Shown in pieces: positions 13,777 to 56,462 of a DNA stretch of 64,000 bases. Within the stretch, counting starts at the first letter, position 1, and every line of letters begins with the position of its first letter. The notes beneath the pieces were generated by a model, which searched no databases, was not told the origin of the DNA, and saw only the letters and a program-made list of their open reading frames with translations. This DNA is from Oscillospiraceae bacterium. GTDB lineage: Bacteria > Bacillota > Clostridia > Oscillospirales > CAG-272. The stretch spans positions 61,558 through 125,557 of the forward strand of contig SVRY01000001.1 in assembly GCA_015064585.1 (NCBI GenBank), given 5' to 3'. A program made the translations under genes and the position numbers.

Positions 13777-13851
13777 ATTCTTTTCATAAATATTGCTTAT
13801 CGTGCGATCAAAAAGTGACATTGATCCGGCGATATGGTGTTTTCGCGTAAA

Positions 13852-15828
13852 TTACTTTTCTGCTTCGGCTTCCTCTTCTACGGGTTCAACATAGTTTTTG
13901 TAGGTAACTTTTGCAAAGTTTACGCCGCCGCCCCAAGAATACTTAAAGTTGCCCAGTTCTTTGCTTACATAATAGCCGTTCTGGTATACAAACAAAGGCA
14001 TAACAGGCATATCGGCGATGAGCATGGCTTCTGCCTTATGCAGAATGGCTGCACGCTTTGTAAGATCCTTTTCAGCAAATGCCTGGTTGATCAGCTTATT
14101 ATAGTTTTCACTGGCATAGCCGGTTACATGGTCAGCTGCAATGGGAGCGTTGTCGTCCGCATCAGTTGCCTGGTTGTACTGGCCAAGGTCAATGGAGCCG
14201 CCGTTATAGAAGGTTGCATAGCTTGCCAATGTTGCAAACGGGTCTACCGACAACTGTTGCATATCAATGGCAATGATATCAAAACCGGCAAGAAGATCTG
14301 CGTGTTTTTCGGGAGTCAGTTTGTCGCCCAACAGCTTTTGCTTTCTTGCAGGAATGACAACATCCTTGCCGCCTGCCAAATAGCAAGCGGTATACAGGTC
14401 GAATATGAGGTTTTCATATTCGGATGCCAGCGGATCGTAAGTGGGATCACTTTCAGCTACCATGTTGATATCGTCGTAAACGTAGTAACCCAGTTTGCGT
14501 ACCGAGCACTTCAAACCGAGCTGCTTGTTCCATACGTCAGCACAGTATTCTGCAATTTCAATGGCAACTTCATCGGTTGCCTTTACGGTAATGGTAAAGG
14601 GAGTGCTTGTGTCGATGCCGGACTTCTTGATCAGAGATTTAGCTTCTGTCAGATCGGCAGTGGCATTGATCAAAACATTTTCGGTATTACGGAACTGAGT
14701 CTTGCTCTTATAGGTGGTTTCGAATACGCCTTGAGGAACAATACCTTCAGCGGGCTTTGCGAACACTACCTTTTCTACCAGTTTGTTGCGGTCAATGGCA
14801 AGCGACAGTGCGCGGCGCACATCAGCGCTCTTGAAAAGATCGTTGTTGGTGTTGAACAGATAGGTGTGTGTAGACAGAGTGTCAACGATGGTGGCACCTT
14901 CTTCACTGCGGTTTGCAAGCGGGAACAAAGCATTGACGAGTACTTCGCCTGCCTTGTACTGTTCGTATCCGTATTTATCGGCACCGGAAATTCTGGCAGA
15001 GGAATCGGCACCGAAGATGAATTCCAGACGGTAGGGCAGTACAAATTCGTTTACCAGATCCTCTTCGTCTTCTTCGATACATCTGAGGTAGTAACGGTTA
15101 CGTTCCAAACGCATAAGCAACTGACCGGAGCCTTCTTCGACAGAAAGGTTCTTCAAGAAGAAGGGACCGTTTGCAAGAACGATAGCGTTGGTGGATGCCC
15201 AGTCATTATCATCGGTTTTGTTAACGGCAGTGTCACGCAACGGCACGAGTGCGGGGCTTGCCAAGTATTCAAGGAAAAGATCCATGTTGGGCTTTTCGGC
15301 AAAGGTGATACGGAGGGTATCACTGTCAACTGCCTGCGCGCCAAGGTCGAACTTGGTGATCTCGCCTACGGCGTTTCTGATCTCATAGGCGTTTTCTATC
15401 ATGTACAGCATGCTTGCTGCGGGAGATTGGTTGGCAGGATCCAGAATCCGTCTCCAAGCATATACGAAATCGTCTGCTTTAACAGTGACCTGGTCGTTCC
15501 AACGAGTTTCACGAATGGTGATTTCAATGATATAGGTTTCGGTCTTGTCGTCATTTTCGATCCATTTGTAACCGGTAGCAAGACCCTTTACGACCTTGCC
15601 TTTTGCGTCATACTTATACAGACCTTCATACATCAAGCTCAGCAAAGATGCGGCGGTGTTGTCAAGGTATGCAAGCTGTGGGTCAAATGTGGTGGGAATT
15701 TCCGAAAAATACACGGGAATGATCGGTCCGGTGTAGTCCTCGTTGTATTTCTCACCGCATCCGGCAAATGTAAAGCATGCGGATGCAAGCATAATGAGGC
15801 AAAGAATAGCGGATAATACTTTTTTCAT
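13852..15828 (-). CDS. ABC transporter substrate-binding lipoprotein, family 5 (peptide/nickel, OppA-like)
   Basis: 658 aa. Signal peptide with lipobox (LASACFTFAGC). Length and motifs fit SBP family 5. The codon-aligned 660-aa plus-strand ORF is antisense noise. Confidence 0.9.
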   Translation of the reverse strand: MKKVLSAILCLIMLASACFTFAGCGEKYNEDYTGPIIPVYFSEIPTTFDPQLAYLDNTAASLLSLMYEGLYKYDAKGKVVKGLATGYKWIENDDKTETYIIEITIRETRWNDQVTVKADDFVYAWRRILDPANQSPAASMLYMIENAYEIRNAVGEITKFDLGAQAVDSDTLRITFAEKPNMDLFLEYLASPALVPLRDTAVNKTDDNDWASTNAIVLANGPFFLKNLSVEEGSGQLLMRLERNRYYLRCIEEDEEDLVNEFVLPYRLEFIFGADSSARISGADKYGYEQYKAGEVLVNALFPLANRSEEGATIVDTLSTHTYLFNTNNDLFKSADVRRALSLAIDRNKLVEKVVFAKPAEGIVPQGVFETTYKSKTQFRNTENVLINATADLTEAKSLIKKSGIDTSTPFTITVKATDEVAIEIAEYCADVWNKQLGLKCSVRKLGYYVYDDINMVAESDPTYDPLASEYENLIFDLYTACYLAGGKDVVIPARKQKLLGDKLTPEKHADLLAGFDIIAIDMQQLSVDPFATLASYATFYNGGSIDLGQYNQATDADDNAPIAADHVTGYASENYNKLINQAFAEKDLTKRAAILHKAEAMLIADMPVMPLFVYQNGYYVSKELGNFKYSWGGGVNFAKVTYKNYVEPVEEEAEAEK

Positions 15829-42152: not shown

Positions 42153-42226
42153 GATTTGAATGCTTCTGTTTGAACGGCATCGGTAAAATTTTTTGTCTTT
42201 TTGCACACTTTTTTCACGCTTCGTTC

Positions 42227-42255
42227 TTGATTTGTTTACAATGTTATGATAGAAT
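42227..42255 (+). promoter_or_regulatory. Sigma-A type promoter candidate for the ABC-2 operon
   Basis: TTGATT (42227-42232), 17 nt, TAGAAT (42250-42255). Confidence 0.5.
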
Positions 42256-42343
42256 AAAAAAGATGGCGGATTATACCTCGTCAACATATGTATTTCTCCT
42301 GTCCCAGAGACGGTTGCAGTATAACATGAAAGGAAGTCCAACT

Positions 42344-43321
42344 ATGATCAAAATTCAGAATCTGGTGAAGAACTATGGCGGCATTCAAGCTGTCAAGAAT
42401 ATTAGCTTTACCGTGGAAGAAGGCGAAATTGTAGGTTTTCTCGGGCCAAACGGCGCGGGCAAGTCTACGGTTATGAATATTCTTACGGGATATCTTTCCT
42501 CAACTTCGGGTGAGGTGGAAGTAAACGGCATTAATGTGCTGGAAAATCCCCTGGAAGCTAAAAGGCAGATTGGTTATCTGCCCGAACAGCCCCCGTTGTA
42601 CCCCGATATGACAGTAAAGGAGTACCTTTCTTTTGTATATGATCTCAAGGGCTGTAAACTCAAAAAGGAAGCGCACCTTTCCGAAATTTGCGATGTGGTT
42701 AAAATCAAAGATGTATATAACCGCGTGATCCGTAACTTGTCAAAAGGCTACCGCCAACGTGTGGGAATTGCACAAGCGCTGATCGGCAATCCTAAGGTTG
42801 TTATTTTTGACGAGCCTACCGTTGGGCTTGATCCCAAGCAGATTATTGAGATCCGTACCTTGATTCGTGATTTGGGACGCAATCATACCGTTATTCTCAG
42901 TACCCATATTCTGCCCGAGGTACAGGCTGTTTGTGATCGCATTGTCATTATCAGCAAAGGCAAAATTGTTGCCAACGAAAAGACAGTGGAAATCAGCCGT
43001 GCGGTTGAAGGGGCAGGCAAATTGAGCATTAAGATTTGCGGTCCCGAAAAGGAAGTATTGGCAACTCTGCGTTCGACATCCGGCGTGCAGTCGGCTGAGG
43101 TGCTGGGCGCGCGTGATTCTGACAGTATTACCTATTACGTGGAAAGCACAGGCGGACTGGATATTCGAAAGATTCTGTTCCGTACTATGGCACAAAAGGG
43201 TTGGCCCATTATCGGTATGGAATCGCTGGGAGTTAATTTGGAGGATGTATTCCTCTCTGTTGTAGAAGATCCCGGCACCACCGGAACCAAAAAGAAGAAT
43301 GTGAAGGGAGGCAAAGCATAA
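42344..43321 (+). CDS. ABC transporter ATP-binding protein (ABC-2 / GldA-like subfamily)
   Basis: 325 aa from ATG 42344 (AAAGGAAG RBS). Walker A GPNGAGKST, signature LSKGYRQR, Walker B VVIFDEP. The track's 58-codon extension lies in non-coding leader. Confidence 0.9.
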   Translation: MIKIQNLVKNYGGIQAVKNISFTVEEGEIVGFLGPNGAGKSTVMNILTGYLSSTSGEVEVNGINVLENPLEAKRQIGYLPEQPPLYPDMTVKEYLSFVYDLKGCKLKKEAHLSEICDVVKIKDVYNRVIRNLSKGYRQRVGIAQALIGNPKVVIFDEPTVGLDPKQIIEIRTLIRDLGRNHTVILSTHILPEVQAVCDRIVIISKGKIVANEKTVEISRAVEGAGKLSIKICGPEKEVLATLRSTSGVQSAEVLGARDSDSITYYVESTGGLDIRKILFRTMAQKGWPIIGMESLGVNLEDVFLSVVEDPGTTGTKKKNVKGGKA

Positions 43322-44025
43322 TGCTGGCACTTCTGAAAAAGGAAATTCATTCCTATTTTACTACCCCTATTGGATATGCATTTATTGCCATTTATTTGGC
43401 TGTTAACGGTGTATTGTTCACTGTTTTTACATTGAAATCCGGCTACTCCACGCCTGAAACCTACTTCACTTGGTCTGTTTTGGCGCTTATCTTGCTGGTT
43501 CCGATTTTGACCATGAAGAGCTTTTCCGAAGAGCGGAAAATGAAAACTGACCAACTTTTGCTGACTGCCCCCATTTCCCTTGGTGCGGTAGTGGGTGCCA
43601 AGCTGCTGGGTGCTTATGTTGTATACGTGATCACCGTATTGGCAAGCACGCTTAATTGTATTGCTCTTGGTATTTACGGCAAGATCAATCTTGGCGTTCT
43701 TTTTGGTTCGTATCTGAGCCTGCTTTTGATCGGGCTTGCCTGCATTGCCATTGGCGTGTTTGTTTCTGCCCTGACCGAGAACCAGTTGGTTGCGGCAGTG
43801 TTTACCATGGGATTGTTGCTTATCATTATCTATATCAGCTTGTTCAATTCGCAGATCGAAAACGACTTTCTGCGTTCGGTTCTGAGCTGGATCTCTTTGC
43901 TGGATCGTTATGCGCTGTTTACCTACGGCATGTTTGACCTGTCGGCTTTGATTTATTATATTTCGATTGCAGGTGTGTTCTATTTCTTAACCATCCGTGT
44001 TTTCGAAAAACGCCGCTGGGAATAA
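43321..44025 (+). CDS. ABC-2 family transporter permease (GldF-like)
   Basis: 234 aa with about 6 hydrophobic segments. Its start shares 1 nt with the ATPase stop. Confidence 0.8.
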   Translation: MLALLKKEIHSYFTTPIGYAFIAIYLAVNGVLFTVFTLKSGYSTPETYFTWSVLALILLVPILTMKSFSEERKMKTDQLLLTAPISLGAVVGAKLLGAYVVYVITVLASTLNCIALGIYGKINLGVLFGSYLSLLLIGLACIAIGVFVSALTENQLVAAVFTMGLLLIIIYISLFNSQIENDFLRSVLSWISLLDRYALFTYGMFDLSALIYYISIAGVFYFLTIRVFEKRRWE

Positions 44026-44049
44026 TGCGGATAAGAAAGGAACGTAAAA

Positions 44050-45564
44050 ATGAAACTGACAAACAATAAGAAATTTAAATACGGTTCGCTTTCGATTCTG
44101 CTGACCGCACTGTTGATTGTGGTGGTGATTCTTGCGAATGTGGCAATTACCGCGTTGTTCAGCTCGAAGCTTTGGTATATTTACAATGTGGATGGCGATA
44201 TTCTCGATATATCCAAAGTAACTGATGACCTTTTTGCGGAATATGTGAATGAAGAACAGGACAAGATCGAGATCGTGTTTATGACCGACGAGGACCGTGT
44301 CAACTCGATCAACGAGTATATGAAGCAGATTCACGAACTTGCCAAATTGTATGAAAAGCGATATGGTTTTATTTCTGTTAAATATGTGGATTATGTAAAC
44401 GATCCCCAGCAGTGGCTGACCGACTATAGAAAACAGGAAAATAAGATCATCAATACCGAATATGTAATTGTGAAGAAGGCAGGCTCCGATTCTGCCATTA
44501 AAGCACTGCATTATCAGAACTTCCTTGCCACCGATACCAGCAATAACAATGCTGTATTTGCTTTTGCGGGAGAACGTCGTTTTACCATGAGTATTCTTTC
44601 GCTGTATGCGGGTAATACCGTGGCATATCTGACCACCGGGCACGGCGAAGTGTCCCTTGATAAGTTAAATGAATTTAAAAATATCTTGGAGGATACCGGT
44701 TTTACTGTCAAAACTATTGACCTTTCCAAAGAGGACATTGCAGAAGAAGCTGAATTGCTTGTGATTGCGGGTCCTGTAAAGGATTTCAATGATATTACCA
44801 CCGGTATCAATGAAATTGGAAAACTGGAAGCATTCAGCGAGCGCAAGGGTAACATTATGGCGTTTATTGATCCGGGTACAGTGGATGAACTGGATAACCT
44901 GTGTGAATTCTTGGCACAGCGCGGTATGACCTTTAACAATGACCTGGTCTACGAAGATGCGGCACATTCTCTTGTCGGTAATTCTCAGAATGTGATCGGG
45001 ACATTTGTCAGCGATGGTAAAACCGGATCAGGTCTTACTGCCGGTATTCGCGACATGAAGGATGTAAAGGCTCTGCTTAAGCAGGTATGTACCATCACCA
45101 TTAACCGTGCGGGACAGGGACATATTGATGATTCCAAGTTGGCAACCAGCGTATCTGCAGTGCTCACTACTTCCAAAGATGCACAGGCTGAAAACTATGC
45201 AACCAACGAAAAGACCGATGCGGTCAATGCACCTGTAATGGTGTTGATGGAACAAAAATGGGCAGAGAACAATAATACTCTGATTTCATATATTCTTTCT
45301 TGCGGTACTTCCGACTTTATTTCGGATTCCGCACTGACCGGAAGCTATGTGAATGATACCATTTTGTATACAGCGTTGCGCGCCATGGTGGCAAAGAACA
45401 CGCCGGAGGATATTATCAATATTGAATTTGTCAACTATGCAGATATGTCGCTTTCCATCACCGAAGGACAGGCAAATGCATGGATGGTTATTTCCGCTGT
45501 GGTGGTTCCGCTTGCAATCCTGATCACCGGCGTAGTGATTTATATGAAGCGCCGCCACAGATAA
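44050..45564 (+). CDS. GldG-family auxiliary protein of the ABC-2 system
   Basis: 504 aa with N- and C-terminal TM anchors around a large extracytoplasmic domain. The position after the ABC-2 ATPase and permease is as in GldAFG-type modules. Family call is from memory. Confidence 0.7.
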   Translation: MKLTNNKKFKYGSLSILLTALLIVVVILANVAITALFSSKLWYIYNVDGDILDISKVTDDLFAEYVNEEQDKIEIVFMTDEDRVNSINEYMKQIHELAKLYEKRYGFISVKYVDYVNDPQQWLTDYRKQENKIINTEYVIVKKAGSDSAIKALHYQNFLATDTSNNNAVFAFAGERRFTMSILSLYAGNTVAYLTTGHGEVSLDKLNEFKNILEDTGFTVKTIDLSKEDIAEEAELLVIAGPVKDFNDITTGINEIGKLEAFSERKGNIMAFIDPGTVDELDNLCEFLAQRGMTFNNDLVYEDAAHSLVGNSQNVIGTFVSDGKTGSGLTAGIRDMKDVKALLKQVCTITINRAGQGHIDDSKLATSVSAVLTTSKDAQAENYATNEKTDAVNAPVMVLMEQKWAENNNTLISYILSCGTSDFISDSALTGSYVNDTILYTALRAMVAKNTPEDIINIEFVNYADMSLSITEGQANAWMVISAVVVPLAILITGVVIYMKRRHR

Positions 45565-45585
45565 AATCGAGGATACAAATAAATT

Positions 45586-47220
45586 ATGAACAATAGTGTT
45601 AAAAAAGGTAAAAATTATCTCAGCACACAGGTAAAGGCGATCATTGTTTTTGTGGTGATGATTGTTGTGTTTGTTCCGTTATGGTTCTTTGTGCTAAAAC
45701 CGGAAGAAACGCCGACACAAACGAATAAACAGCCCAGCGTTGATTACAGTTTGTATGACCACGCGGTATATATCGGAACCAATGAAACGGTAAAAGAAAT
45801 CGCTTCCGACAATGTGGAAAGCATTCACATGACAAAGGACGGTACGACTTGGGGCTTTGTTTATGACTATACCGACGAAACGTTTTACCTTGACGGGTAC
45901 GGCAAGAAAATCGCTTATGACACCATGTCCTTTGGTTATATCAATTATTTTTGCTATTCCGGAAGTGCTCTCAAATTAATTGCGGAAGATGTCAAGGATC
46001 TTGGACGCTACGGACTTGCTTCCGATTCGGAAAATCTTCTGACGCTGCATGTGAAGACCAGAGACGGAAAAGAAGTGGAAGTTTTGGTGGGGGATCAAAT
46101 GGTGGATACCAGCGGTTACTATGCTACAACCGCAGGCAATGATAAGGTTTATTCCATAAATTCCATGACATATGGCTATATCAGTTGTTCCGAATATGAT
46201 ATTATGAGCCTTCGTATTACCAATCCTTTCACCGAAAGTGAGTATACTCCTAATAGTTTTGTGATCTATCACGGAAGTGAGAAGTTTGTGGAATTGAAGA
46301 GTTTTGATGTAAACGAAGCAACCGATATGGAATATGTCAAAACTACGCAGGTAATCTATCCTACCGCATATATTCCTTTTTCCGCCAGCAACGCGTACTC
46401 CAATATGACATATACGTATCTCAGAAGTGTCATAAACGGTGAGCGTGTAGTGGCGGCAGAAAAGGAAAATGAAACCTTTGATGAGGCATATCTGAAGGAA
46501 ACCTTCGGTATCGATGCCAATGATCCTAACTGCATGCGATTGGTTTATAACCATGAATTTGAGGATGTGGGTCTGATCGAAAACGATGTGCTGTTCAGTG
46601 CCAAAGACAAAGACGGTTATTATTATGCCTATAATTTGGCGTTGGGAACCGTTGTTAAAATCAAGGCGTCCAGTATACCGTTTATGGAATGGGATGCCGA
46701 GCAGTATATGGAGCCGGCAGTATATTTGCAGAGTATCAATACTGTAAAAGAATTGATCATTAACAGTACAGGACTGCAGGATTATTATGTGAAAGACGGT
46801 CACCATAGTCTGAATGAAAAGTTTGTTTCCAATGCGCCCCTGGAAGCTGATTCAGCTACTTTGGAAGTGAAACGAGGCGACGGCAGTGCGTTGCCGCAGG
46901 TTTATAAGGATGGGGCTCTTTACAGAACGGGACTGGATAACTACCGTTATCTGTTCTTGGCACTTCAATCCATCGATATTCACGAAAAAATGAATGAAGA
47001 TGACATCAAGGATAAAAACATTGATTTGAATGCCCCCGGTGTGACGGTTACCATCGTAACCCGTTCCGGCTCGGAGCATGTTCTGAGATTCTATTATTAT
47101 GGCTCCAGCGGTGCATATTTCACTTATAACGGTGAAGGCGGCTACAGCGTTCCGCAAAGTTCTATCAAGAAAATGCTGACCGCTTGCTATAATGTTTGCA
47201 ACGGTATTTTGGTTGCATAA
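45586..47220 (+). CDS. DUF4340-like extracytoplasmic protein, N-terminally anchored
   Basis: 544 aa with a single N-terminal TM (AIIVFVVMIVVFVPLWFFVL). It is the usual fourth gene of this module. The family name is not verified. Confidence 0.6.
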   Translation: MNNSVKKGKNYLSTQVKAIIVFVVMIVVFVPLWFFVLKPEETPTQTNKQPSVDYSLYDHAVYIGTNETVKEIASDNVESIHMTKDGTTWGFVYDYTDETFYLDGYGKKIAYDTMSFGYINYFCYSGSALKLIAEDVKDLGRYGLASDSENLLTLHVKTRDGKEVEVLVGDQMVDTSGYYATTAGNDKVYSINSMTYGYISCSEYDIMSLRITNPFTESEYTPNSFVIYHGSEKFVELKSFDVNEATDMEYVKTTQVIYPTAYIPFSASNAYSNMTYTYLRSVINGERVVAAEKENETFDEAYLKETFGIDANDPNCMRLVYNHEFEDVGLIENDVLFSAKDKDGYYYAYNLALGTVVKIKASSIPFMEWDAEQYMEPAVYLQSINTVKELIINSTGLQDYYVKDGHHSLNEKFVSNAPLEADSATLEVKRGDGSALPQVYKDGALYRTGLDNYRYLFLALQSIDIHEKMNEDDIKDKNIDLNAPGVTVTIVTRSGSEHVLRFYYYGSSGAYFTYNGEGGYSVPQSSIKKMLTACYNVCNGILVA

Positions 47221-47281
47221 GAAAAATACAACGAAGAGAGAGGGTGTAAACCGTTCTCTCTTCGCTTGATTTGAGGGTTAT

Positions 47282-48253
47282 ATGAAAAAAATAGTTTCGA
47301 TGTTATTGGTTGTTTTGACGTTTTGCGGTCTTGTTGCCTGCGGGGGCAGCAAATACGCCCATGGAAGTGAAAAAATCGTTTTGAAATTGGGCGATCATAA
47401 GGTGAGCGAAGAGGTGTATCGCTATTTCTTGCTGAATACCATGGACGAAATGGCAAACGGCGATAATAACTATTTCCAAGGAGCAGATAGAGAGGAAAAG
47501 CTGTCCCAACTGGAGAAGACGGTGCTGGGACATCTCAAGCAGTTTTATTCGGTACTGGATCTGGCAGATGAATGTGATATTGAAATGTCTGAGAAAGAAT
47601 TAGAGGCAATTGATGAGACAATGGAAGCGTTGCGTGCCGATTTTGAGTCGCCGGAGAAGTATCAGGAAGAATTGCAGGCGGCGTATCTTTCGGAATACAT
47701 GGCATATTCTTTGATCTATAACGAAAGTTTGCAGACAGCATTGTATAATACAATGTCGCAGACCGGAAAGTATTTTTCGGTGGACGGAAACGATATTTTG
47801 GCATACGCTAAGGAGAATTTTTTGTTTTGCCGTCAGTTTGTCGTAAAAACAGACGACCCTGCAACCGATGAGGAAGCAATGGAAAAGGCGCAGACGATTC
47901 ACGACAGACTCTCACAAGGCGAAGATCCCGCCGACGTACTCAAGGAATATGAGAGCGACGACACTGTTATTGGGGCGTATTATTGTTTTGCCGAAACCGA
48001 AGACTTTGCGGGGCTGAATGAAGAAGCTGTACAGGAACTGAAAGAGGGAGAGATTTCAGATATCCGCATGGACGGCTATGGTTTCCATATCATTATTCGT
48101 ATGAAGCCAGACACGGAATATCTGGAAGATAATCTTTCCGACGGTGTGTTTGAATCTTACTGTATGCATCAAATGAATTTGAGACTGGAGAAGATTCAAA
48201 AAGAATATACTGTAACTTATAAGAATAAGCAGGAACCCGAAGCATATCGGTGA
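47282..48253 (+). CDS. Lipoprotein with parvulin-type peptidyl-prolyl isomerase domain (PrsA-like)
   Basis: 323 aa. Lipobox LTFCGLVAC; C-terminal PPIC-like stretch (FCRQFVV...ISDIRMDGYGFHIIIRM). Confidence 0.65.
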   Translation: MKKIVSMLLVVLTFCGLVACGGSKYAHGSEKIVLKLGDHKVSEEVYRYFLLNTMDEMANGDNNYFQGADREEKLSQLEKTVLGHLKQFYSVLDLADECDIEMSEKELEAIDETMEALRADFESPEKYQEELQAAYLSEYMAYSLIYNESLQTALYNTMSQTGKYFSVDGNDILAYAKENFLFCRQFVVKTDDPATDEEAMEKAQTIHDRLSQGEDPADVLKEYESDDTVIGAYYCFAETEDFAGLNEEAVQELKEGEISDIRMDGYGFHIIIRMKPDTEYLEDNLSDGVFESYCMHQMNLRLEKIQKEYTVTYKNKQEPEAYR

Positions 48254-48257
48254 TTGA

Positions 48258-48303
48258 GAAAAGGAAGTTTGGGATCGCGTAGGATCTAAAACTTCCTTTT
48301 TGG
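48258..48303. terminator. Bidirectional terminator between convergent genes
   Basis: GAAAAGGAAGTT, loop, AACTTCCTTTTT. Confidence 0.7.
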
Positions 48304-48334
48304 TTTAAAGAATTCTGTGATAACAAGTATTTGT

Positions 48335-49678
48335 TTACTCAATGACCACGCAGCATTCCGTAATGCCGTAATATTGAAAGAGACGGATGGCGTTTTGGTC
48401 AATGCGCTGTCCCATGATAACGATCGGAACCGCGGGCGGGCAGGCTATGTTGGCAGATGCCAATATTCTGCCGCATGCTTGCGCCAGTGAAACAGTTTCG
48501 CTGGCGCATAACATAGCATCTTTGGGAGCCATTGCTGTTTCGGGAGTGAAAAGAGTGGGAAGCACCGGTCGCAGGGGGGCTTTGGGGGGGATTTGGCAGA
48601 TGGTTTTTGCAAGATCGGCAAGGCTTGCTTCTTCGATTGCAGGACTTAGCATCAAAACGACCACATCCGGATCACAGAATTCGCATTCCATGCCCTGTTT
48701 TCTTAGAATGGCGGCAAATTCGATGCCGGTGTATCCATATTCTCTTGTGAGAATGGTCAGTTTTAGCGGTTCATTGCCCAAAAGAGTAAAACCAAATCGG
48801 GACAGCTTTTCTTTAACAGCTTGGATTTTGGGGACAAAACTTTGCAGTTTTTTAGGATAACACTTTGCCAATGAGCGGTTTGCCAGATCCAATGACTGCA
48901 ATATCAGATAGGAAGGGCTGGTGGAACCAAACAGCGAAAGTGCGTTTTTGGCGTTTGTTACAAAAAAATCAGGGGCATTTTGTGAAATGTGCAGATAAGC
49001 GCCTCCGGTCAGCACCGGGAGCGTTTTGTGTGCAGAGTCACAGCAGAGATCTGCGCCCAGATCCATGGGATGCCAAGAGGGATAAAGGAATCGCAGGTAG
49101 GCACCGTGGGCGTTATCGACAAGCAAAAGCACGCCATGTGCGTGGCACACTTTTGAGAGCGTGGCTATATCGGCAATATTTCCCAAATAATCCGGGGAAG
49201 TAATGTACACTGCGGTGGGCAAAGTGTCACAGCCATTCAGATAGTCGGCAAGTGAGCTTGCATTTATTGTACAGGCAAGATAGCTTTCACTGAGAGCGGA
49301 TGGCAGATAATCCACCTCTATGTCCAGTAGTGCTGAAGCTGTAACAAAGGTTTTGTGGGCATTGCGGCAGGCGGCAATGACCGCCTTTTTTTTGTTTTGT
49401 GCGGCATACAGTTTTATAAGCCAAAGCATACCGCGGATACAAAGAGAGGATCCTTCGGTGGAAAAGAATGTGGCTTTTGTGCCAAACAGTTTTGCGGCGT
49501 TTTGTTCGCTTTCTTGAATGATCCCCCCCGCCTCGTATAAACTGTCAGCACCCGGGATTTCGGTGATGTCCCTTGCTTCAATGCCAAGCGGACCATTTCC
49601 CTTGTGCCCCGGCATATGAAGCCGTAAAGCGTTTTTTTGACAGTAGAGGTCAATATAGTCGGAAATCGGCGTATTCAT
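48335..49678 (-). CDS. Orn/Lys/Arg decarboxylase-family PLP-dependent enzyme (YaaO-like)
   Basis: 447 aa: LHMPGHKG..., SLYEAGG, STSPSY, DSAHKTLP (PLP lysine). Its ATG overlaps the stop of the SCIFF maturase (ATGA at 49675-49678). Confidence 0.8.
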   Translation of the reverse strand: MNTPISDYIDLYCQKNALRLHMPGHKGNGPLGIEARDITEIPGADSLYEAGGIIQESEQNAAKLFGTKATFFSTEGSSLCIRGMLWLIKLYAAQNKKKAVIAACRNAHKTFVTASALLDIEVDYLPSALSESYLACTINASSLADYLNGCDTLPTAVYITSPDYLGNIADIATLSKVCHAHGVLLLVDNAHGAYLRFLYPSWHPMDLGADLCCDSAHKTLPVLTGGAYLHISQNAPDFFVTNAKNALSLFGSTSPSYLILQSLDLANRSLAKCYPKKLQSFVPKIQAVKEKLSRFGFTLLGNEPLKLTILTREYGYTGIEFAAILRKQGMECEFCDPDVVVLMLSPAIEEASLADLAKTICQIPPKAPLRPVLPTLFTPETAMAPKDAMLCASETVSLAQACGRILASANIACPPAVPIVIMGQRIDQNAIRLFQYYGITECCVVIE

Positions 49679-51051
49679 TCTTCGCCGCCCATTTCACGGG
49701 CAATCGCTACCATGATGGCGCATTCCATTCGTTTGCGAAAGAGCTCGCAACCGCTTTGATAAATACCTTTAACGCTGCCTGTGGCGTGGTAAGCGTTGGC
49801 GGCACATCCGCCGGAACAGTACAGTCTTGCCCAGCAGTCACGGCATTCGGGGCGGGTATAAACATTGCATTCTGCAAATTCGCATTGGGCGCATTTGTTG
49901 GTAATACCCTGCCAAATGTCACCCAAACGGTATTTTTCTTCGCCTACGAACTGATGGCAGGGGTACAGATCCCCCCAAGGAGTGACAGCCATATATTCAG
50001 TGCCCGAACCGCAACCCGAAACACGCTTATAGATACAGGGACCGCCTGTGAGGTCGATCATGTAATGATAGAAAGTGAAGGGTTTTCCTTCTTTGTCGCG
50101 TTGCAGCATGAGCATTGCCAGATCTTCGTACTGTCCCTTGACAATTTCCATATCCTCAGGGGTCAATTCGGAAGGATCGCCCGGCGCACAAACTACCGGT
50201 TCCATGCTCAGTTCGGTAAAGCCAAGGTCAAGCATTTGTTGGATATCGGCAAGAAAATCGGGGTTGGCATGGGTAAACGTGCCGCGCATATAGTAATTTT
50301 TGCCGTTGCGTGCCTCTACTAACTTTTGGAATAACGGAACGATGCGCTCCCAACTGCCCTTTCCGGCATAATCCACGCGGAAACGGTCGTGAATTTCTTT
50401 TCTGCCGTCCAGGCTGAGTACCACATTGCTCATTTCGCGATTGGCAAAATCGATAACATCTTCATCAATCAGCATGCCGTTTGTGGTTAAGGTGAAGCGG
50501 AAATTTTTGTTGTGTTCTTTCTCAATGCTGCGGGCATAGGCAACCAGCTCTTTGATCATGTCGAGATTCATCAGCGGCTCTCCGCCAAAGAAGTCAACTT
50601 CCAGGTTGCGGCGCGTGCCGGAATTTTCAATAAGAAAATCCAGCGCTCTTTTTCCCACTTCCGGCGACATGATAGCGCGTTCTCCATGGTATTTGCCTTG
50701 GCTGGCAAAGCAATAGGAGCAGTTGAGGTTGCAGGTGTGGGCAACATGCAGGCAGAGCGCTTTGACCACCGATGCGTTTTTTTCTTTCAGCTTGCCCGCG
50801 AGCGGCGCAAAAGTATCTTGAGCGAACAGCTTGCCCATGTCGCGCAGTTCTTCGATCTGGCTATAGCATTCGGCAATTTCTTCTTCGGTGCAGGCAGGAT
50901 ATTTTTCTTTCATGGAGGCATAGATCGTGCTGCGATCGTTGGATTCGTACATGGCGATAATATCATACGCCACATCGTCCACAACGTGAACGGAACCGGA
51001 ACATACATCCAAAACAATGTTGTATCCGCCGAGTTTATATTGATGTATCAT
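49675..51051 (-). CDS. scfB: Radical SAM/SPASM thioether cross-link-forming SCIFF peptide maturase
   Basis: 458 aa. CX3CX2C (AHTCNLNCSYC) and a C-terminal SPASM Cys clusters (CGSGTEY...CHQF...CAQCEFAEC...CRDCWARLYCSGGC). Directly downstream of a SCIFF precursor. Confidence 0.9.
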   Translation of the reverse strand: MIHQYKLGGYNIVLDVCSGSVHVVDDVAYDIIAMYESNDRSTIYASMKEKYPACTEEEIAECYSQIEELRDMGKLFAQDTFAPLAGKLKEKNASVVKALCLHVAHTCNLNCSYCFASQGKYHGERAIMSPEVGKRALDFLIENSGTRRNLEVDFFGGEPLMNLDMIKELVAYARSIEKEHNKNFRFTLTTNGMLIDEDVIDFANREMSNVVLSLDGRKEIHDRFRVDYAGKGSWERIVPLFQKLVEARNGKNYYMRGTFTHANPDFLADIQQMLDLGFTELSMEPVVCAPGDPSELTPEDMEIVKGQYEDLAMLMLQRDKEGKPFTFYHYMIDLTGGPCIYKRVSGCGSGTEYMAVTPWGDLYPCHQFVGEEKYRLGDIWQGITNKCAQCEFAECNVYTRPECRDCWARLYCSGGCAANAYHATGSVKGIYQSGCELFRKRMECAIMVAIAREMGGEE

Positions 51052-51100
51052 GATATTTGTTTCTCCGATATTGTGATTAGAAATTTTTATGTTTCAAACC

Positions 51101-51143
51101 AAAAGGGCTGCCGCAAACCCGAAATTTGCACACAGCCCTTTTT
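51101..51143 (-). terminator. Hairpin between precursor and maturase genes (possible partial terminator/attenuator)
   Basis: AAAAGGGCTG (51101-51110) pairs with CAGCCCTTTT (51133-51142). On the minus strand it is followed by TTTTGGTTTG. Confidence 0.45.
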
Positions 51144-51156
51144 GGACGATTGATTC

Positions 51157-51306
51157 TTACTTCTTTTCGGTGTTTTCGCACTGCTGATTTGCGATGCCGC
51201 AGCTGGTCTTGCAAGCAGACTGGCAAGAGGTCTGGCATTCGCCGCAACCGCCGTTCTTTGCGCTTTCGCACAGGTTACGAGTGGCGAGAGTCTTGATGTG
51301 TTTCAT
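51157..51306 (-). CDS. scfA: SCIFF (six-cysteines-in-forty-five) ranthipeptide precursor, 49 aa; absent from the ORF track
   Basis: Manual translation gives MKHIKTLATRNLCESAKNGGCGECQTSCQSACKTSCGIANQQCENTEKK. GGAGGA RBS 8 nt upstream of ATG 51306, TAA stop at 51157-51159. The GGCGECQTSCQSACKTSC core is the SCIFF hallmark. Confidence 0.9.
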   Translation of the reverse strand: MKHIKTLATRNLCESAKNGGCGECQTSCQSACKTSCGIANQQCENTEKK

Positions 51307-51343
51307 TGTGGTATCCTCCGTCGGAACTTAAATACTTTATATC

Positions 51344-51372
51344 AGTTTAGCACACTTTTATGCCAAAGTCAA
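51344..51372 (-). promoter_or_regulatory. Sigma-A type promoter candidate for the SCIFF operon
   Basis: The minus strand reads TTGACT, 17 nt, TAAACT, about 35 nt upstream of the scfA ATG. Confidence 0.55.
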
Positions 51373-51402
51373 GACAGCAGCGAAAAAAAACGTTATTTGC
51401 GC

Positions 51403-52284
51403 TTATAATAAGTCGGCAGCTTCCATTTCTCTTTCCAGAAGCCGTTTGGTTTCTTCGCTTGGTTCGGTCAGCGGCAATCGCCAGTCTGCCCGACAGAACC
51501 CCAGTCTGGAAAGCGCCCATTTGACAGGGATGGGGTTGGTTTGCGAAAACAGCGCATCAACAAGCGGCAGAATTGACAGTTGTATTTTGGCTGCTTTGGC
51601 CGTATCGCCCGCTTCTGCGGCCTCAGTCATGGCTTGGATACGTGCGGGCATCAGATTGGAGATGACAGAAATGCAGCCCATCCCTCCAATGGACATAAGC
51701 GGAACGATGCTGTCGTCATTTCCGCTGTAGACAGGGATATCGGAGGCGTTTAAATAACGGGCGCTCATGGCAATGTCGCCGCCGGCATCTTTTAGCCCTA
51801 CAATGTTTGGCAGAGCGGAAAGGCGCTTCCATAGATCAGCAGCTATCCTGATGCCGGTGCGTCCGGGCACTTGATAGACAATGATGGGCAGATCGGTGGC
51901 TCGGGACAGTGCTTTATAATGCTGATACAGTCCCTCGGCGGACGGCTTGTTATAATAGGGGGTGACTGCTAAAATGCCGTGCACACCGCTTGCTGATGCC
52001 ATATGTGTAAGCGCGAGAGAGCCCATTGTGTCACAGGTGCCGCATCCCGCAATGAGCGTGGCGTGATTTCCGTATTCTGCCCCGGCAAAAGAAAACAGGG
52101 ATTGCTTTTCCGAGGGGGTGAGCGTTGCGCTTTCACCTGTTGTACCGCAGAGAACGATGGTTTTTACCCCGCCTTCCAGTTGATATTCAATCAGACGGGA
52201 TAACGCGGCAAAGTCGATTTTTCCGTTTGTAAAAGGAGTGATCAGCGCGGTGGCTGTTTGGTGAAATAAGGGTGTGTTTTTCAT
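51403..52284 (-). CDS. dapA: 4-hydroxy-tetrahydrodipicolinate synthase
   Basis: 293 aa: ALITPF...GTTGESATLT...YNKP...and the active-site region GLKDAGG. Confidence 0.92.
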   Translation of the reverse strand: MKNTPLFHQTATALITPFTNGKIDFAALSRLIEYQLEGGVKTIVLCGTTGESATLTPSEKQSLFSFAGAEYGNHATLIAGCGTCDTMGSLALTHMASASGVHGILAVTPYYNKPSAEGLYQHYKALSRATDLPIIVYQVPGRTGIRIAADLWKRLSALPNIVGLKDAGGDIAMSARYLNASDIPVYSGNDDSIVPLMSIGGMGCISVISNLMPARIQAMTEAAEAGDTAKAAKIQLSILPLVDALFSQTNPIPVKWALSRLGFCRADWRLPLTEPSEETKRLLEREMEAADLL

Positions 52285-52343
52285 ATTGTCTCCTGTATTC
52301 TCAAAATGAAATTCGGTTTTTGTTAATAAAATTAAAAAAACAG

Positions 52344-52372
52344 TTGCATTACGGGAAAATTTATATTATAAT
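52344..52372 (+). promoter_or_regulatory. Sigma-A type promoter candidate for queA
   Basis: TTGCAT (52344-52349), 17 nt, TATAAT (52367-52372). Confidence 0.55.
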
Positions 52373-52468
52373 GAAAAGTGATAGTTATTTTTACTCATGG
52401 TGTGTATGCAAATGACAGCAACTGCCAAGGATAGGAAGGACGGCGGAAAAACTGCCGGGTTAAAAAGT

Positions 52469-53533
52469 ATGATCGTCAATAACAGACCCCAAACAACGCT
52501 TTCCACAAAGGATTTTTACTATGATCTACCGGAATCACAAATTGCGCAAACGCCGGCAGAGCCCAGAGACAGTTCTCGTTTGTTGGTGGTAGATGCAAAG
52601 ACCGGCGAAACCCAAGATCGGATCTTTCGGGATATTGTTGATTATTTACATCCGGGAGACACGCTGGTGGTAAATGATTCCAAGGTGATTCCCGCAAGAT
52701 TGTATGGCGTGAAAGCCGACAGCGGTATTGAATGCGAGGTCGTATTGCTTCGCATGCGTGAAGCGGATGTATGGGAATGTCTGGTGCGTCCCGGCAGAAG
52801 ATTAAAGCCCGGTGCTATCATTGTATTCGGAAATGGGCTTTGCCGTGCCACTGTGAATGAAACAGTGGAGGGTGGAAATCGATTGCTTTCGTTTGTATAC
52901 GATAAAGAAAAATGGAATTTTTATACTTTGCTTGACGAGATCGGTCAGATGCCGCTGCCGCCGTATATTACTGAAAAATTGCGGGATAAAGATCGCTATC
53001 AGACTATATATGCCAACGAAGAAGGATCTGCGGCTGCTCCCACAGCGGGACTGCATTTTACCAATGAACTTCTTGATAAGATTCGTCAAATGGATGTTGC
53101 GGTGGTGCCGGTCATGCTGCATGTGGGTTTGGGAACCTTCAGACCCGTTAAAGTTGAAAGTATCACCGATCACGAAATGCACAGCGAGTATTTTGTGGTA
53201 AGTGAAGCGGCAGCCAGAACCATCAATGAAAGACGCAGGGCGGGTGGTAGGACTATTTGTGTGGGTACCACTTCTTGCCGTACACTGGAAAGCGCTGCTG
53301 ATGAGAACGGTATGGTGCACGCAATGCAGGGAGATACCGGCATCTTTATTTATCCGGGCTACCGATTCAAAGCGATGGATGCTTTGATTACAAATTTCCA
53401 TCTGCCCGAGAGCACGCTTTTGATGTTGGTGTCGGCTTTTTCCAGCCGAGAAATCATGCTGAACACATACAATGAAGCTGTTGAGAAAGGCTATCGGTTC
53501 TTCTCCTTCGGAGATGCGATGTTTATTTCGTGA
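52469..53533 (+). CDS. queA: S-adenosylmethionine:tRNA ribosyltransferase-isomerase
   Basis: DFYYDLPESQIAQTPAEPRDSSRLL...PLPPYI...TAGLHFT...VGTTSCRTLES. The start is uncertain: ATG 52469 best matches QueA N-termini but has a poor RBS, and the track start is 52397. Confidence 0.88.
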   Translation: MIVNNRPQTTLSTKDFYYDLPESQIAQTPAEPRDSSRLLVVDAKTGETQDRIFRDIVDYLHPGDTLVVNDSKVIPARLYGVKADSGIECEVVLLRMREADVWECLVRPGRRLKPGAIIVFGNGLCRATVNETVEGGNRLLSFVYDKEKWNFYTLLDEIGQMPLPPYITEKLRDKDRYQTIYANEEGSAAAPTAGLHFTNELLDKIRQMDVAVVPVMLHVGLGTFRPVKVESITDHEMHSEYFVVSEAAARTINERRRAGGRTICVGTTSCRTLESAADENGMVHAMQGDTGIFIYPGYRFKAMDALITNFHLPESTLLMLVSAFSSREIMLNTYNEAVEKGYRFFSFGDAMFIS

Positions 53534-55739: not shown

Positions 55740-56462
55740 ATGGATAAGAACAAGTTACTGGAAAATATAGAATCGGTAAGAGAAGAGATAAAAAAAGCGG
55801 AGATTTCCGCCGGCAGAAAACCGGGATCGGTACTGCTTCTTGCGGCGACAAAGACTGTTTCGCCGGAGGATATCAATTTTGCTGTGAACCAAGGCGGGAT
55901 TACCGACATCGGGGAAAACCGTGTGCAGGAACTCTTGGCAAAGTATGACCGTCTTGACAGAGAGAAAATGAGGATTCACTTTATCGGTACGTTGCAGACC
56001 AATAAGGTAAAGTATATCATTGATAAGGTGGACATGATCCACTCGGTGGATAGTTTGAAACTGGCAAAGGAAATCGATCGCCGTGCCGCGGCAATCGGCA
56101 AGATACAGGACATTTTGCTGGAATACAACAGCGGAGATGAAGAAAACAAAAGCGGCTTTTCTGAGGAAGAATTGTATTGTTCACTGCCTGAAATTGCCAA
56201 ACTGCCGCATGTTCGGCTGTGCGGGGTAATGACAATTGCCCCCAAATGTCGGTGTGACGAAGATTATTGTAAATTTTTTGCTAAAACATATCAAATTTTT
56301 ATTGACATTTCGCAAAAAAAACTGCATAATGGTAGTGTATCGGTATTGTCCATGGGCATGTCGGATTCTTATGTTGCAGCAATCAACACCGGGGCAACGG
56401 TAGTACGTGTGGGAAGCAAAATTTTCGGTGCGCGTATTTACCCCGAAACCAAAATGAATTAA
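55740..56462 (+). CDS. yggS: YggS/YlmE-family pyridoxal phosphate homeostasis protein
   Basis: 240 aa: LLAATKTV (PLP Lys)...IGENRVQE...HFIGTLQTNKVK...LSMGMS.D. Confidence 0.88.
   Translation: MDKNKLLENIESVREEIKKAEISAGRKPGSVLLLAATKTVSPEDINFAVNQGGITDIGENRVQELLAKYDRLDREKMRIHFIGTLQTNKVKYIIDKVDMIHSVDSLKLAKEIDRRAAAIGKIQDILLEYNSGDEENKSGFSEEELYCSLPEIAKLPHVRLCGVMTIAPKCRCDEDYCKFFAKTYQIFIDISQKKLHNGSVSVLSMGMSDSYVAAINTGATVVRVGSKIFGARIYPETKMN

Follow-up and report, generated by a model that had tools for sequence, protein, structure and literature searches.

The described systems closest to the locus treated here are CteA/CteB of Acetivibrio thermocellus (maturase structure 5WGG) and Tte1186a/Tte1186, each composed of a SCIFF precursor peptide and its radical S-adenosylmethionine (SAM) maturase. 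We analysed a stretch of 64,000 nucleotides (nt) from an Oscillospiraceae bacterium (GenBank assembly GCA_015064585.1, contig SVRY01000001.1, positions 61,558 to 125,557 of the forward strand), hereafter the window, which encodes members of the same precursor (scfA) and maturase (scfB) families in the common precursor-hairpin-maturase layout. It differs from the CteA/CteB systems in having a third gene, for a pyridoxal phosphate (PLP) enzyme, and in lying away from the usual tgt-yajC...secDF-recJ context. The canonical clostridial scf neighbourhood likewise consists of scfA, a hairpin, scfB and a close co-directional gene, but that gene is secDF there and the PLP enzyme here.

The third gene product is best compared with the YaaO-type enzymes. 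Li et al. 2021 (PMC8503589) describe Firmicutes with two "ancestral-form" paralogues of the aspartate aminotransferase (AAT) fold, whose characterised forms have 480-490 amino acids (aa). The SpeA type makes polyamines; the YaaO type is encoded upstream of tmk, has no polyamine effect and has no known reaction, and in Staphylococcus aureus a YaaO homologue occupies this position before tmk. In Bacillus subtilis, yaaO influences, together with the radical SAM gene yfkA and with ywlG, the level of 5-aminopentanol on Lys32 of EF-P, for which an effect via precursor synthesis was suggested (Witzky et al. 2018, PMC5885033). Like YaaO and its homologue SAR0482 from S. aureus, the window enzyme has the S-x-HKTLPxLT motif together with the PLP lysine and the cofactor Asp, and it is of the short ancestral form lacking the N-terminal wing domain. 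It differs from them in that it is only about 31% identical, is encoded in overlap with scfB and not upstream of tmk, and has the derived motifs VDNAHGxYL and LTGG.

The genes scfA and scfB belong to known families, are already annotated publicly and represent an ordinary clostridial SCIFF pair. What appears to be new is the coupled YaaO-like gene, which is found throughout a clade and recurs outside it. The collection of papers searched contains none that meaningfully links SCIFF with pyridoxal, PLP or a decarboxylase. The three genes and their junction are as follows.

48335..49678, minus strand: predicted YaaO-like AAT-fold PLP enzyme of 447 aa, Orn/Lys/Arg decarboxylase (OKR) family (PF01276 and PF03711)
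49675..49678, minus strand: ATGA overlap of the scfB stop and the start of the PLP-enzyme gene, read directly
49675..51051, minus strand: scfB, radical SAM/SPASM SCIFF maturase of 458 aa, with its own Shine-Dalgarno sequence (TIGR03974)
51157..51306 including the stop codon, minus strand: scfA, SCIFF ranthipeptide precursor of 49 aa (TIGR03973 and PF13165)

Evidence for the coupling comes from a first comparative set (set 1) of 80 loci from different species, the closest 80 of at least 595 matches, in which ScfB is 76-82% identical to that of the window; it covers Oscillospiraceae, Acutalibacteraceae, Ruminococcus, Faecousia and relatives. With at least 600 nt available 3' of scfB, 76 of these loci are informative for the downstream gene, and 75 of them have a homologue of the PLP enzyme (44-63% identical) within 1 kb 3' of scfB. 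The sole exception (L009) has a convergent gene of the malate/lactate dehydrogenase family in this place. The junctions are mostly tight, like the one in the window, where the ATGA overlap and the 447-aa reading frame claimed by an earlier first-pass annotation of this DNA are read directly: the distance is -4 to +5 nt in 67 of the 76 set 1 loci measured, 13 of which have ATGA. A good Shine-Dalgarno sequence, counted as such if it matched AGGAGG at five or more of six positions, precedes the PLP-enzyme gene in only 5 of 70 loci and is missing in the other 65. Translation therefore probably starts from ribosomes that finish scfB, and we regard the two genes as very probably truly translationally coupled, as judged from their sequences. 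Tight spacing was also considered as a proof of partnership in itself; this argument is weakened by the gap between scfB and secDF in other Clostridia, which is short as well, and the missing Shine-Dalgarno sequence is the stronger one.

No other flanking gene family is kept in more than a handful of set 1 loci. Flanks that seemed conserved, in clusters of 8-11 loci, turned out to be antisense shadow reading frames of scfB and scfA, and dapA, queA and ppiC, which stand beside the triad in the window, were found there only in near-identical contigs and not in other species. The triad is kept while no flank is conserved, and it has therefore survived extensive rearrangement. A few loci illustrate how it has been disturbed. 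In L018 (218-4197) scfA is missing from the 1.45 kb 5' of scfB, where a YhcG/DUF1016 PDDEXK nuclease gene is located instead, and scfB and the PLP-enzyme gene overlap despite its absence; the precursor may be encoded elsewhere or may have been lost. Insertions within the operon occur in single species: in L043 (1511-2749) scfA and scfB are separated by a gene for an MFS transporter, which overlaps the scfB start by 4 nt, and in L074 (11504-11917) a gene for a PF05635 23S rRNA intervening-sequence protein is inserted between scfB and the PLP-enzyme gene.

For the wider Clostridia we used a second set (set 2), headed by CteB, of 80 loci from metagenomes (ScfB 46-71% identical). They are the best 80 among the first 600 matches to the pattern, and 71 of them are informative for the downstream gene. 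The usual order in these loci is tgt, yajC, a small membrane protein gene, and scfA-scfB-secDF-recJ-apt. An OKR-family gene is found beside scfAB in only 4 of the 71, 3' of scfB in L123, L157 and L158 and directly 5' of scfA in L154, and the identity of the four proteins to the window enzyme is 27-30%. Coupling holds across the window clade and recurs in a few others, but SCIFF loci in general do not show it. Conservation of the neighbour, on which the first-pass annotation had made the coupling depend, is accordingly observed among the related genomes and not in most Clostridia, which have secDF instead.

The recurrence was followed by a search with the L158 enzyme as query, from which ten genomic contexts were inspected. 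In six of them (L158, L161-L163, L165 and L166) a gene of a second YaaO-like lineage has the same architecture as in the window, the scfB stop abutting or overlapping the OKR_DC_1 start, with ATGA in several; besides L158 they comprise a Proteiniclasticum ruminis-like genome, a Clostridiaceae metagenome-assembled genome (MAG), a Peptostreptococcaceae MAG and two more contigs. The remaining four, in C. cylindrosporum, C. thermosuccinogenes, Caloramator fervidus and one further contig, have the classic yaaO-tmk-darA-holB-ricT order. The coupled enzymes of this lineage differ from the window enzyme in their length of 475-527 aa and in their canonical VDEAHGAHF and LTQ motifs; they are 27-31% identical to it and group with tmk-linked YaaO. 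In particular, in a neighbour-joining tree the six coupled enzymes and three tmk-linked ones (C. cylindrosporum, Caloramator and P0312, from the further contig) form a group with 91% bootstrap support, the C. thermosuccinogenes enzyme falls outside this group, and the six are monophyletic in 57% of the replicates. L154 and L157 represent a third YaaO-like lineage in a different arrangement, the L154 gene being directly 5' of scfA. Within the YaaO-like radiation, linkage to scfB thus arose or disappeared on at least two occasions. As a rough estimate, chance adjacency of a gene present in one or two copies would be of the order of 0.1% per genome.

Several loci of the second lineage show features of their own. 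In the Peptostreptococcaceae MAG (L163, 1516-7584), scfA is located about 3 kb from scfB, with five small genes in between (an acetyltransferase, a DUF4177 protein, a SnoaL-like protein and two more); even with scfA displaced, the start of the PLP-enzyme gene overlaps scfB by 4 nt. In the Proteiniclasticum-like loci L161, L162 and L165 the operon is always followed by a convergent gene for a helicase-like protein of about 1900 aa (DUF4011/AAA_11/AAA_12/MTES_1575), and in L161 and L162 genes for a GDSL lipase and an IclR regulator precede the operon of scfAB and the PLP enzyme.

The identity of the enzyme was assessed with NCBIfam and Pfam hidden Markov models (HMMs) at their curated cutoffs and, for the fold, with an AlphaFold2 (AF2) model searched by Foldseek. 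The first-pass annotation had called it an Orn/Lys/Arg decarboxylase-family PLP enzyme. The family stands (PF01276, 106 bits at a cutoff of 27; PF03711, 28.1 bits at a cutoff of 24.2), and the nearest relatives are YaaO-like. Could it nevertheless be a polyamine enzyme, that is, a SpeA-type Arg, Orn or Lys decarboxylase that is expressed along with scfAB and yields agmatine, putrescine or cadaverine? The Pfam matches, a fold like that of Lys, Orn and Arg decarboxylases and the name "amino acid decarboxylase" given to homologues in some records would fit; other public names for window-type enzymes are "aminotransferase class V-fold" and "PLP-dependent transferase". The AF2 model (predicted local distance difference test, 81.6; predicted template modelling score, 0.84; low confidence for the first ~45 residues) retrieved 2X3L, the structure of SAR0482, as the top hit (E = 8.5e-21), followed by LdcI, LdcC, ODC and AdiA.

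SpeA-type decarboxylases thus belong to the same Pfam family and fold; they differ from the window enzyme in the motif after the PLP lysine, and the similarity is much weaker. By sequence the closest solved relative is again 2X3L/SAR0482 (125 bits, E = 3.7e-35), against 35 bits for the best chain of the polyamine type, and none of the NCBIfam decarboxylase equivalogs exceeds 31 bits, with cutoffs above 290. The PLP lysine (S215-A-H-K218) and the cofactor Asp (D188, in VDNAHG) are invariant in 26 family members. Within the motif SAHKTLPVLT, the pattern S-x-HKTLPxLT is common to SAR0482 and four tmk-linked homologues; the window enzyme reads HKTLPVLTGG and not HK-x-x-(G/A)-x-x-(T/S)-Q, and AdiA-type enzymes, unlike it, read HK-x-L-x-x-x-SQ. 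Its 447 aa fall short of the characterised ancestral forms. Genes speB, speE, speD or for the carboxyspermidine route, which would be supporting and not obligatory features, are absent from the approximately 50 annotated genes of the window. We consider a polyamine role very improbable. As far as sequence and predicted fold indicate, the enzyme is a YaaO-like member of the non-polyamine branch, and "decarboxylase" is a label for its fold.

Within this branch the window-type enzymes stand apart. More than 150 representatives (50% clustering) score at least 310 bits, and they are monophyletic with 100% bootstrap support on a separate long branch of a neighbour-joining tree built without a SpeA outgroup. 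Three features are derived in them: VDNAHGxYL replaces VDEAHGxHF/L, LTGG replaces LTQ or LTM, and a Cys pair precedes SAHK. The synteny by which Li et al. 2021 recognise YaaO is missing, as tmk occurs neither in the window nor in the 80 related loci. A second OKR-family gene was likewise found neither in the window nor in the fetched loci of the window clade.

The gene pair can be read in more than one way. In our best reading, which we hold with about even confidence on the basis of gene arrangement and sequence, the PLP enzyme would be a working partner of the SCIFF pathway. This is favoured because its overlap with scfB persists through rearrangement and recurs independently, and because the surroundings of the active site are altered. 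Alternatively, the gene might be a passenger: a housekeeping YaaO relocated behind a steadily expressed operon and sharing its transcript, with no biochemical link to SCIFF. The closeness of the S. aureus YaaO homologue in sequence and structure agrees with this, as does the S-x-HKTLPxLT motif of tmk-linked YaaO; so does the function of B. subtilis YaaO, which is unrelated to any RiPP (ribosomally synthesised and post-translationally modified peptide). scfAB is moreover usually surrounded by housekeeping genes with secDF close behind, and a gene lacking a promoter and a Shine-Dalgarno sequence of its own leaves an operon with difficulty, so that the conservation may in part be inertia. Inertia fails, however, to explain three YaaO-like lineages in three arrangements beside scfAB (downstream overlap twice, upstream once). 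The residues altered next to the cofactor Asp and Lys in the window clade, together with its long, fully supported branch, fit a changed function, and the overlap with scfB outlasts the displacement of scfA. We take the passenger explanation to be possible, although on balance doubtful.

A number of observations weigh against a partnership. In set 2, secDF is directly 3' of scfB in 43 of the 71 loci, mostly with a gap of 10-50 nt; a downstream gene packed equally closely is therefore normal for a scf locus. We know of no report of a SCIFF system in YaaO-bearing Bacilli such as B. subtilis and S. aureus, and the ancestral role of the family thus needs no SCIFF. The most basal window-type member sampled (P0490, 39% identical) is not encoded beside scfB: on a 2.6-kb contig (L173, 121-2557) its gene is located 3' of a SUKH/SMI1-KNR4 gene with a 1-nt gap. 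Set 1 consists mostly of MAGs and, as a selection of closest matches, is a biased sample, and the placement of the enzymes depends on a neighbour-joining tree that lacks a SpeA outgroup. More generally, gene order is not biochemistry.

The precursor peptides add to these objections. Cys13 and Gly37 occur in all 75 set 1 peptides, in which positions 37-39 read GIA in 74 cases and GVV in one, and in uncoupled peptides position 13 is Lys, Gln or Asn and position 37 is Thr. Neither residue tracks the coupling: peptides of the second coupled lineage have Lys13 and Thr37, and L160 combines Cys13 and Gly37 with a downstream gene for a Na+/H+ antiporter. Ala39 is common to all coupled peptides but is not confined to them, as 11 uncoupled ones have it too. 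The idea of a peptide trait that tracks the PLP enzyme was rejected, as all three candidates fail and no signature is left. The passenger explanation gains from this lack of co-variation, which also speaks against an enzyme that tailors particular residues of the peptide.

Such direct tailoring might act on the free N-terminal amine after removal of the leader, on a Lys side chain in the Lys-rich tail, or on a residue that proteolysis uncovers. It would agree with the translational coupling to the maturase, an arrangement frequent for cooperating proteins, and daptide RiPPs have their C-terminus tailored by PLP-dependent aminotransferases. The tail following the last Cys is longer in the window clade, with a mode of 7 residues against 4 in uncoupled peptides, and ends on Lys in 72 of 75 peptides. 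A C-terminal Lys is, however, frequent in uncoupled peptides too (51/66), and the tails of the second coupled lineage are short and different (ENLDR, EREDN), with no unique residue in common with those of the window clade. The chemistry is a further obstacle: alpha-decarboxylation by PLP enzymes requires one carbon to carry both a free alpha-amino group and an alpha-carboxylate, which makes decarboxylation of the peptide backbone unlikely and an alpha-decarboxylation within the peptide implausible for such an enzyme. In the published view, finally, YaaO makes a substrate and does not modify proteins directly. We judge direct tailoring to be quite improbable.

Under a partnership, the substrate of the PLP enzyme would most likely be a free amino acid or another small molecule with an amine, either derived from the matured peptide, bound to it or required together with it. 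A YaaO-family enzyme would have been recruited to scfB and subsequently modified around its cofactor site. A more far-reaching version, which we regard as unlikely, makes YaaO-family enzymes and ScfB partners in general: SCIFF would then be a substrate or scaffold, and not just a signalling peptide, whose radical-SAM-modified product is processed further by the PLP enzyme or combined with the product of the latter. This would resemble peptide-derived cofactors or small molecules built on a scaffold.

The peptide of the window clade also differs from the precursors studied so far. A Cys32-Thr37 thioether has been reported in vitro for Tte1186a and CteA, and Hudson 2019 gave Thr34 as the thioether acceptor. 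Compared with CteA and Tte1186a, the window-clade peptides have Gly37 in place of Thr37, keep Thr34 and carry an additional Cys13 within the leader. These gut and rumen SCIFFs may therefore be cross-linked in another pattern than the studied ones.

The assignment of both SCIFF genes is firm. The first-pass annotation had predicted a minus-strand frame for a 49-aa peptide with seven Cys at 51306-51157 and named HMM searches as the check on precursor and maturase: exactly the quoted peptide is encoded, and both models are exceeded by a wide margin. The peptide scores 80.5 bits against TIGR03973 (cutoff 50, E = 6e-23, model positions 1-43 of 43) and 82.6 bits against PF13165 (cutoff 27, E = 1.8e-23). 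Its Cys residues are C13, C21, C24, C28, C32, C36 and C43, the last six of which match the six-Cys SCIFF core GGCGECQTSCQSACKTSC...C, with C13 as the extra one. Peptides from related loci are 78-94% identical to it. The precursor was described as hidden, which holds only for the list of reading frames used at the time: an identical product with a PF13165 match is already called on 23 public contigs, among them a JGI contig with the same gene order.

ScfB, whose gene starts 105 nt 3' of scfA on the same strand, scores 751.5 bits against TIGR03974 (cutoff 425, E = 3e-226) and remains, with 555 bits, under the cutoff of 855 of the exception model NF040492 ("not_ScfB", an ScfB-related orphan). The radical SAM motif CX3CX2C is C107-x3-C111-x2-C114. 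The alignment with CteB (5WGG) covers residues 1-449 end to end, the N-terminal leader-binding domain included (E = 8e-160), and keeps all cluster Cys; taken alone, the SPASM domain scores 18.8 bits in Pfam, just below the cutoff of 21.5. The protein is 100% identical to a SCIFF maturase so named by NCBI from a Ruminococcaceae MAG.

The control elements of the operon are the following.

51344..51372, minus strand: predicted sigma-70-type operon promoter, -35 TTGACT at 51372-51367, 17-nt spacer, TG-extended -10 TAAACT at 51349-51344
51314..51319, minus strand: Shine-Dalgarno sequence GGAGGA of scfA, 7-nt spacer to the ATG
about 51099..51145, minus strand: terminator-like hairpin between scfA and scfB, followed by UUUUGG (centroid -25.2 kcal/mol, z = -3.36 versus 200 shuffles)
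48259..48300, no strand assigned: strong hairpin where the PLP-enzyme gene and ppiC converge, which probably terminates transcription in both directions and marks the operon's 3' end (-18.9 kcal/mol)

The promoter TTGACT-17-TAAACT is read as it had been predicted. In the window alone it does not exceed chance, since a consensus scan (9/12 match) found 12 sites against 9.0 +/- 3.2 expected from shuffles; it is accepted only because of its comparative conservation. The best -35/-10 pair matches at least 10 of 12 positions in 63 of 74 related set 1 loci, compared with 4 of 74 shuffles, and the -35 element is TTGACT or TTGACA in 63 of the 74. The -10 element is TG-extended, TATAAT-like and fixed in position, ending a median of 32 nt 5' of the scfA ATG, so that both position and sequence of the promoter are conserved. 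The ribosome-binding site of scfA is likewise present as predicted, although at 7 nt and not 8 nt from the start codon. A good Shine-Dalgarno sequence precedes scfA in 69 of 75 and scfB in 61 of 80 related loci. Upstream, the co-directional dapA ends 97 nt 5' of scfA. The stretch from its stop to the scfA promoter (51373-51402) contains only a T8 run, without a convincing hairpin, and some read-through from dapA into the operon is therefore possible in this genome.

The hairpin between scfA and scfB, placed at 51101-51143 by the first-pass annotation and found at nearly the same limits, had been proposed there to set the ratio of precursor to maturase. The comparative data support this. Counting hairpins of -12 kcal/mol or below with a T-tract in the scfA-scfB intergenic region, we found one in 73 of 74 set 1 loci against 8 of 222 shuffled intergenic regions (3.6%), and in 55 of 68 set 2 loci against 10 of 204 (4.9%). 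The consensus has double changes at 4 of 9 pairs. The stem AAATGCCGCC/GGCGGCATTT is common to the hairpins of most set 1 relatives, and we note as unusual that the near-identical terminator stem AAATGCCGCC-loop-GGCGGCATTTTT is found in most related species while the rest of the intergenic sequence is divergent. The hairpin of the window is a different and longer one. We interpret the element as a putative leaky attenuator that would set the precursor:maturase ratio, which is well founded as an inference, the leakiness itself being deduced. The hairpin 3' of the PLP-enzyme gene is likewise exceptional for its composition (z = -6.15; none of 200 shuffles equally stable), with an A-tract upstream and a U-run downstream. 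An Rfam scan of positions 47000-53000 gave no RNA family at E <= 0.1.

Taken together, one promoter would drive scfA, which has a strong ribosome-binding site, and the hairpin 3' of it would let only part of the transcripts pass, leaving the precursor in excess. Transcripts that read through would encode ScfB, which by analogy would introduce the thioether cross-links of SCIFF. The PLP enzyme would probably be made by reinitiation after ScfB, tying its level to that of the maturase, and the strong hairpin behind its gene would end the operon.

The remaining gene content of the window is that of the core chromosome of a spore-former (dpaAB, gpr, parAB/noc, dnaB, serS, polA, ftsH, tilS, queA, miaA, ileS, lspA), and the source is a MAG of the Ruminococcaceae/Oscillospiraceae type from gut or rumen. 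A YggS-family PLP-homeostasis gene is located at 55740-56462, about 4.4 kb from the PLP-enzyme operon; its proximity is probably a coincidence, as other species do not keep these flanks. At 42170-47220, adjoining the ppiC-type gene, a four-gene cluster resembles the gliding-motility ABC transporter of Bacteroidetes, here in a Firmicute. It encodes a GldA-like ATPase, a GldF-like permease and proteins of 504 aa and 544 aa without an NCBIfam match; a gene identical to that of the 544-aa protein is found on a public contig (L169) with a weak Pfam match to DUF4340. At 13834-15828 two nearly full-length reading frames overlap on opposite strands, with 660 aa on the plus and 658 aa on the minus strand. 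The minus frame matches substrate-binding proteins of the OppA type, and the plus frame is therefore probably a shadow.

Among the RiPP systems of anaerobic Firmicutes, SCIFF is one of the most widespread; it is near-universal in Clostridia and abundant among bacteria of the gut and rumen, and its mature structure and role are debated. The statement of the first-pass annotation that SCIFF peptides lack a known role is partly dated: disruption of scfAB in C. beijerinckii lowers the expression of sporulation genes and raises that of agr (Chen 2020, as summarised in PMC8102284). YaaO-type enzymes, for which no reaction is known, are just as widespread, and the scfB-coupled forms give access to two orphan systems at once. 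The third gene also bears on annotation, since SCIFF counts as a two-gene cluster in genome-mining tools. If the coupling reflects co-expression only, the locus would be unusual in its operon neighbour and otherwise an ordinary SCIFF one. If the partnership is true, SCIFF and YaaO could both be addressed in one experimental system.

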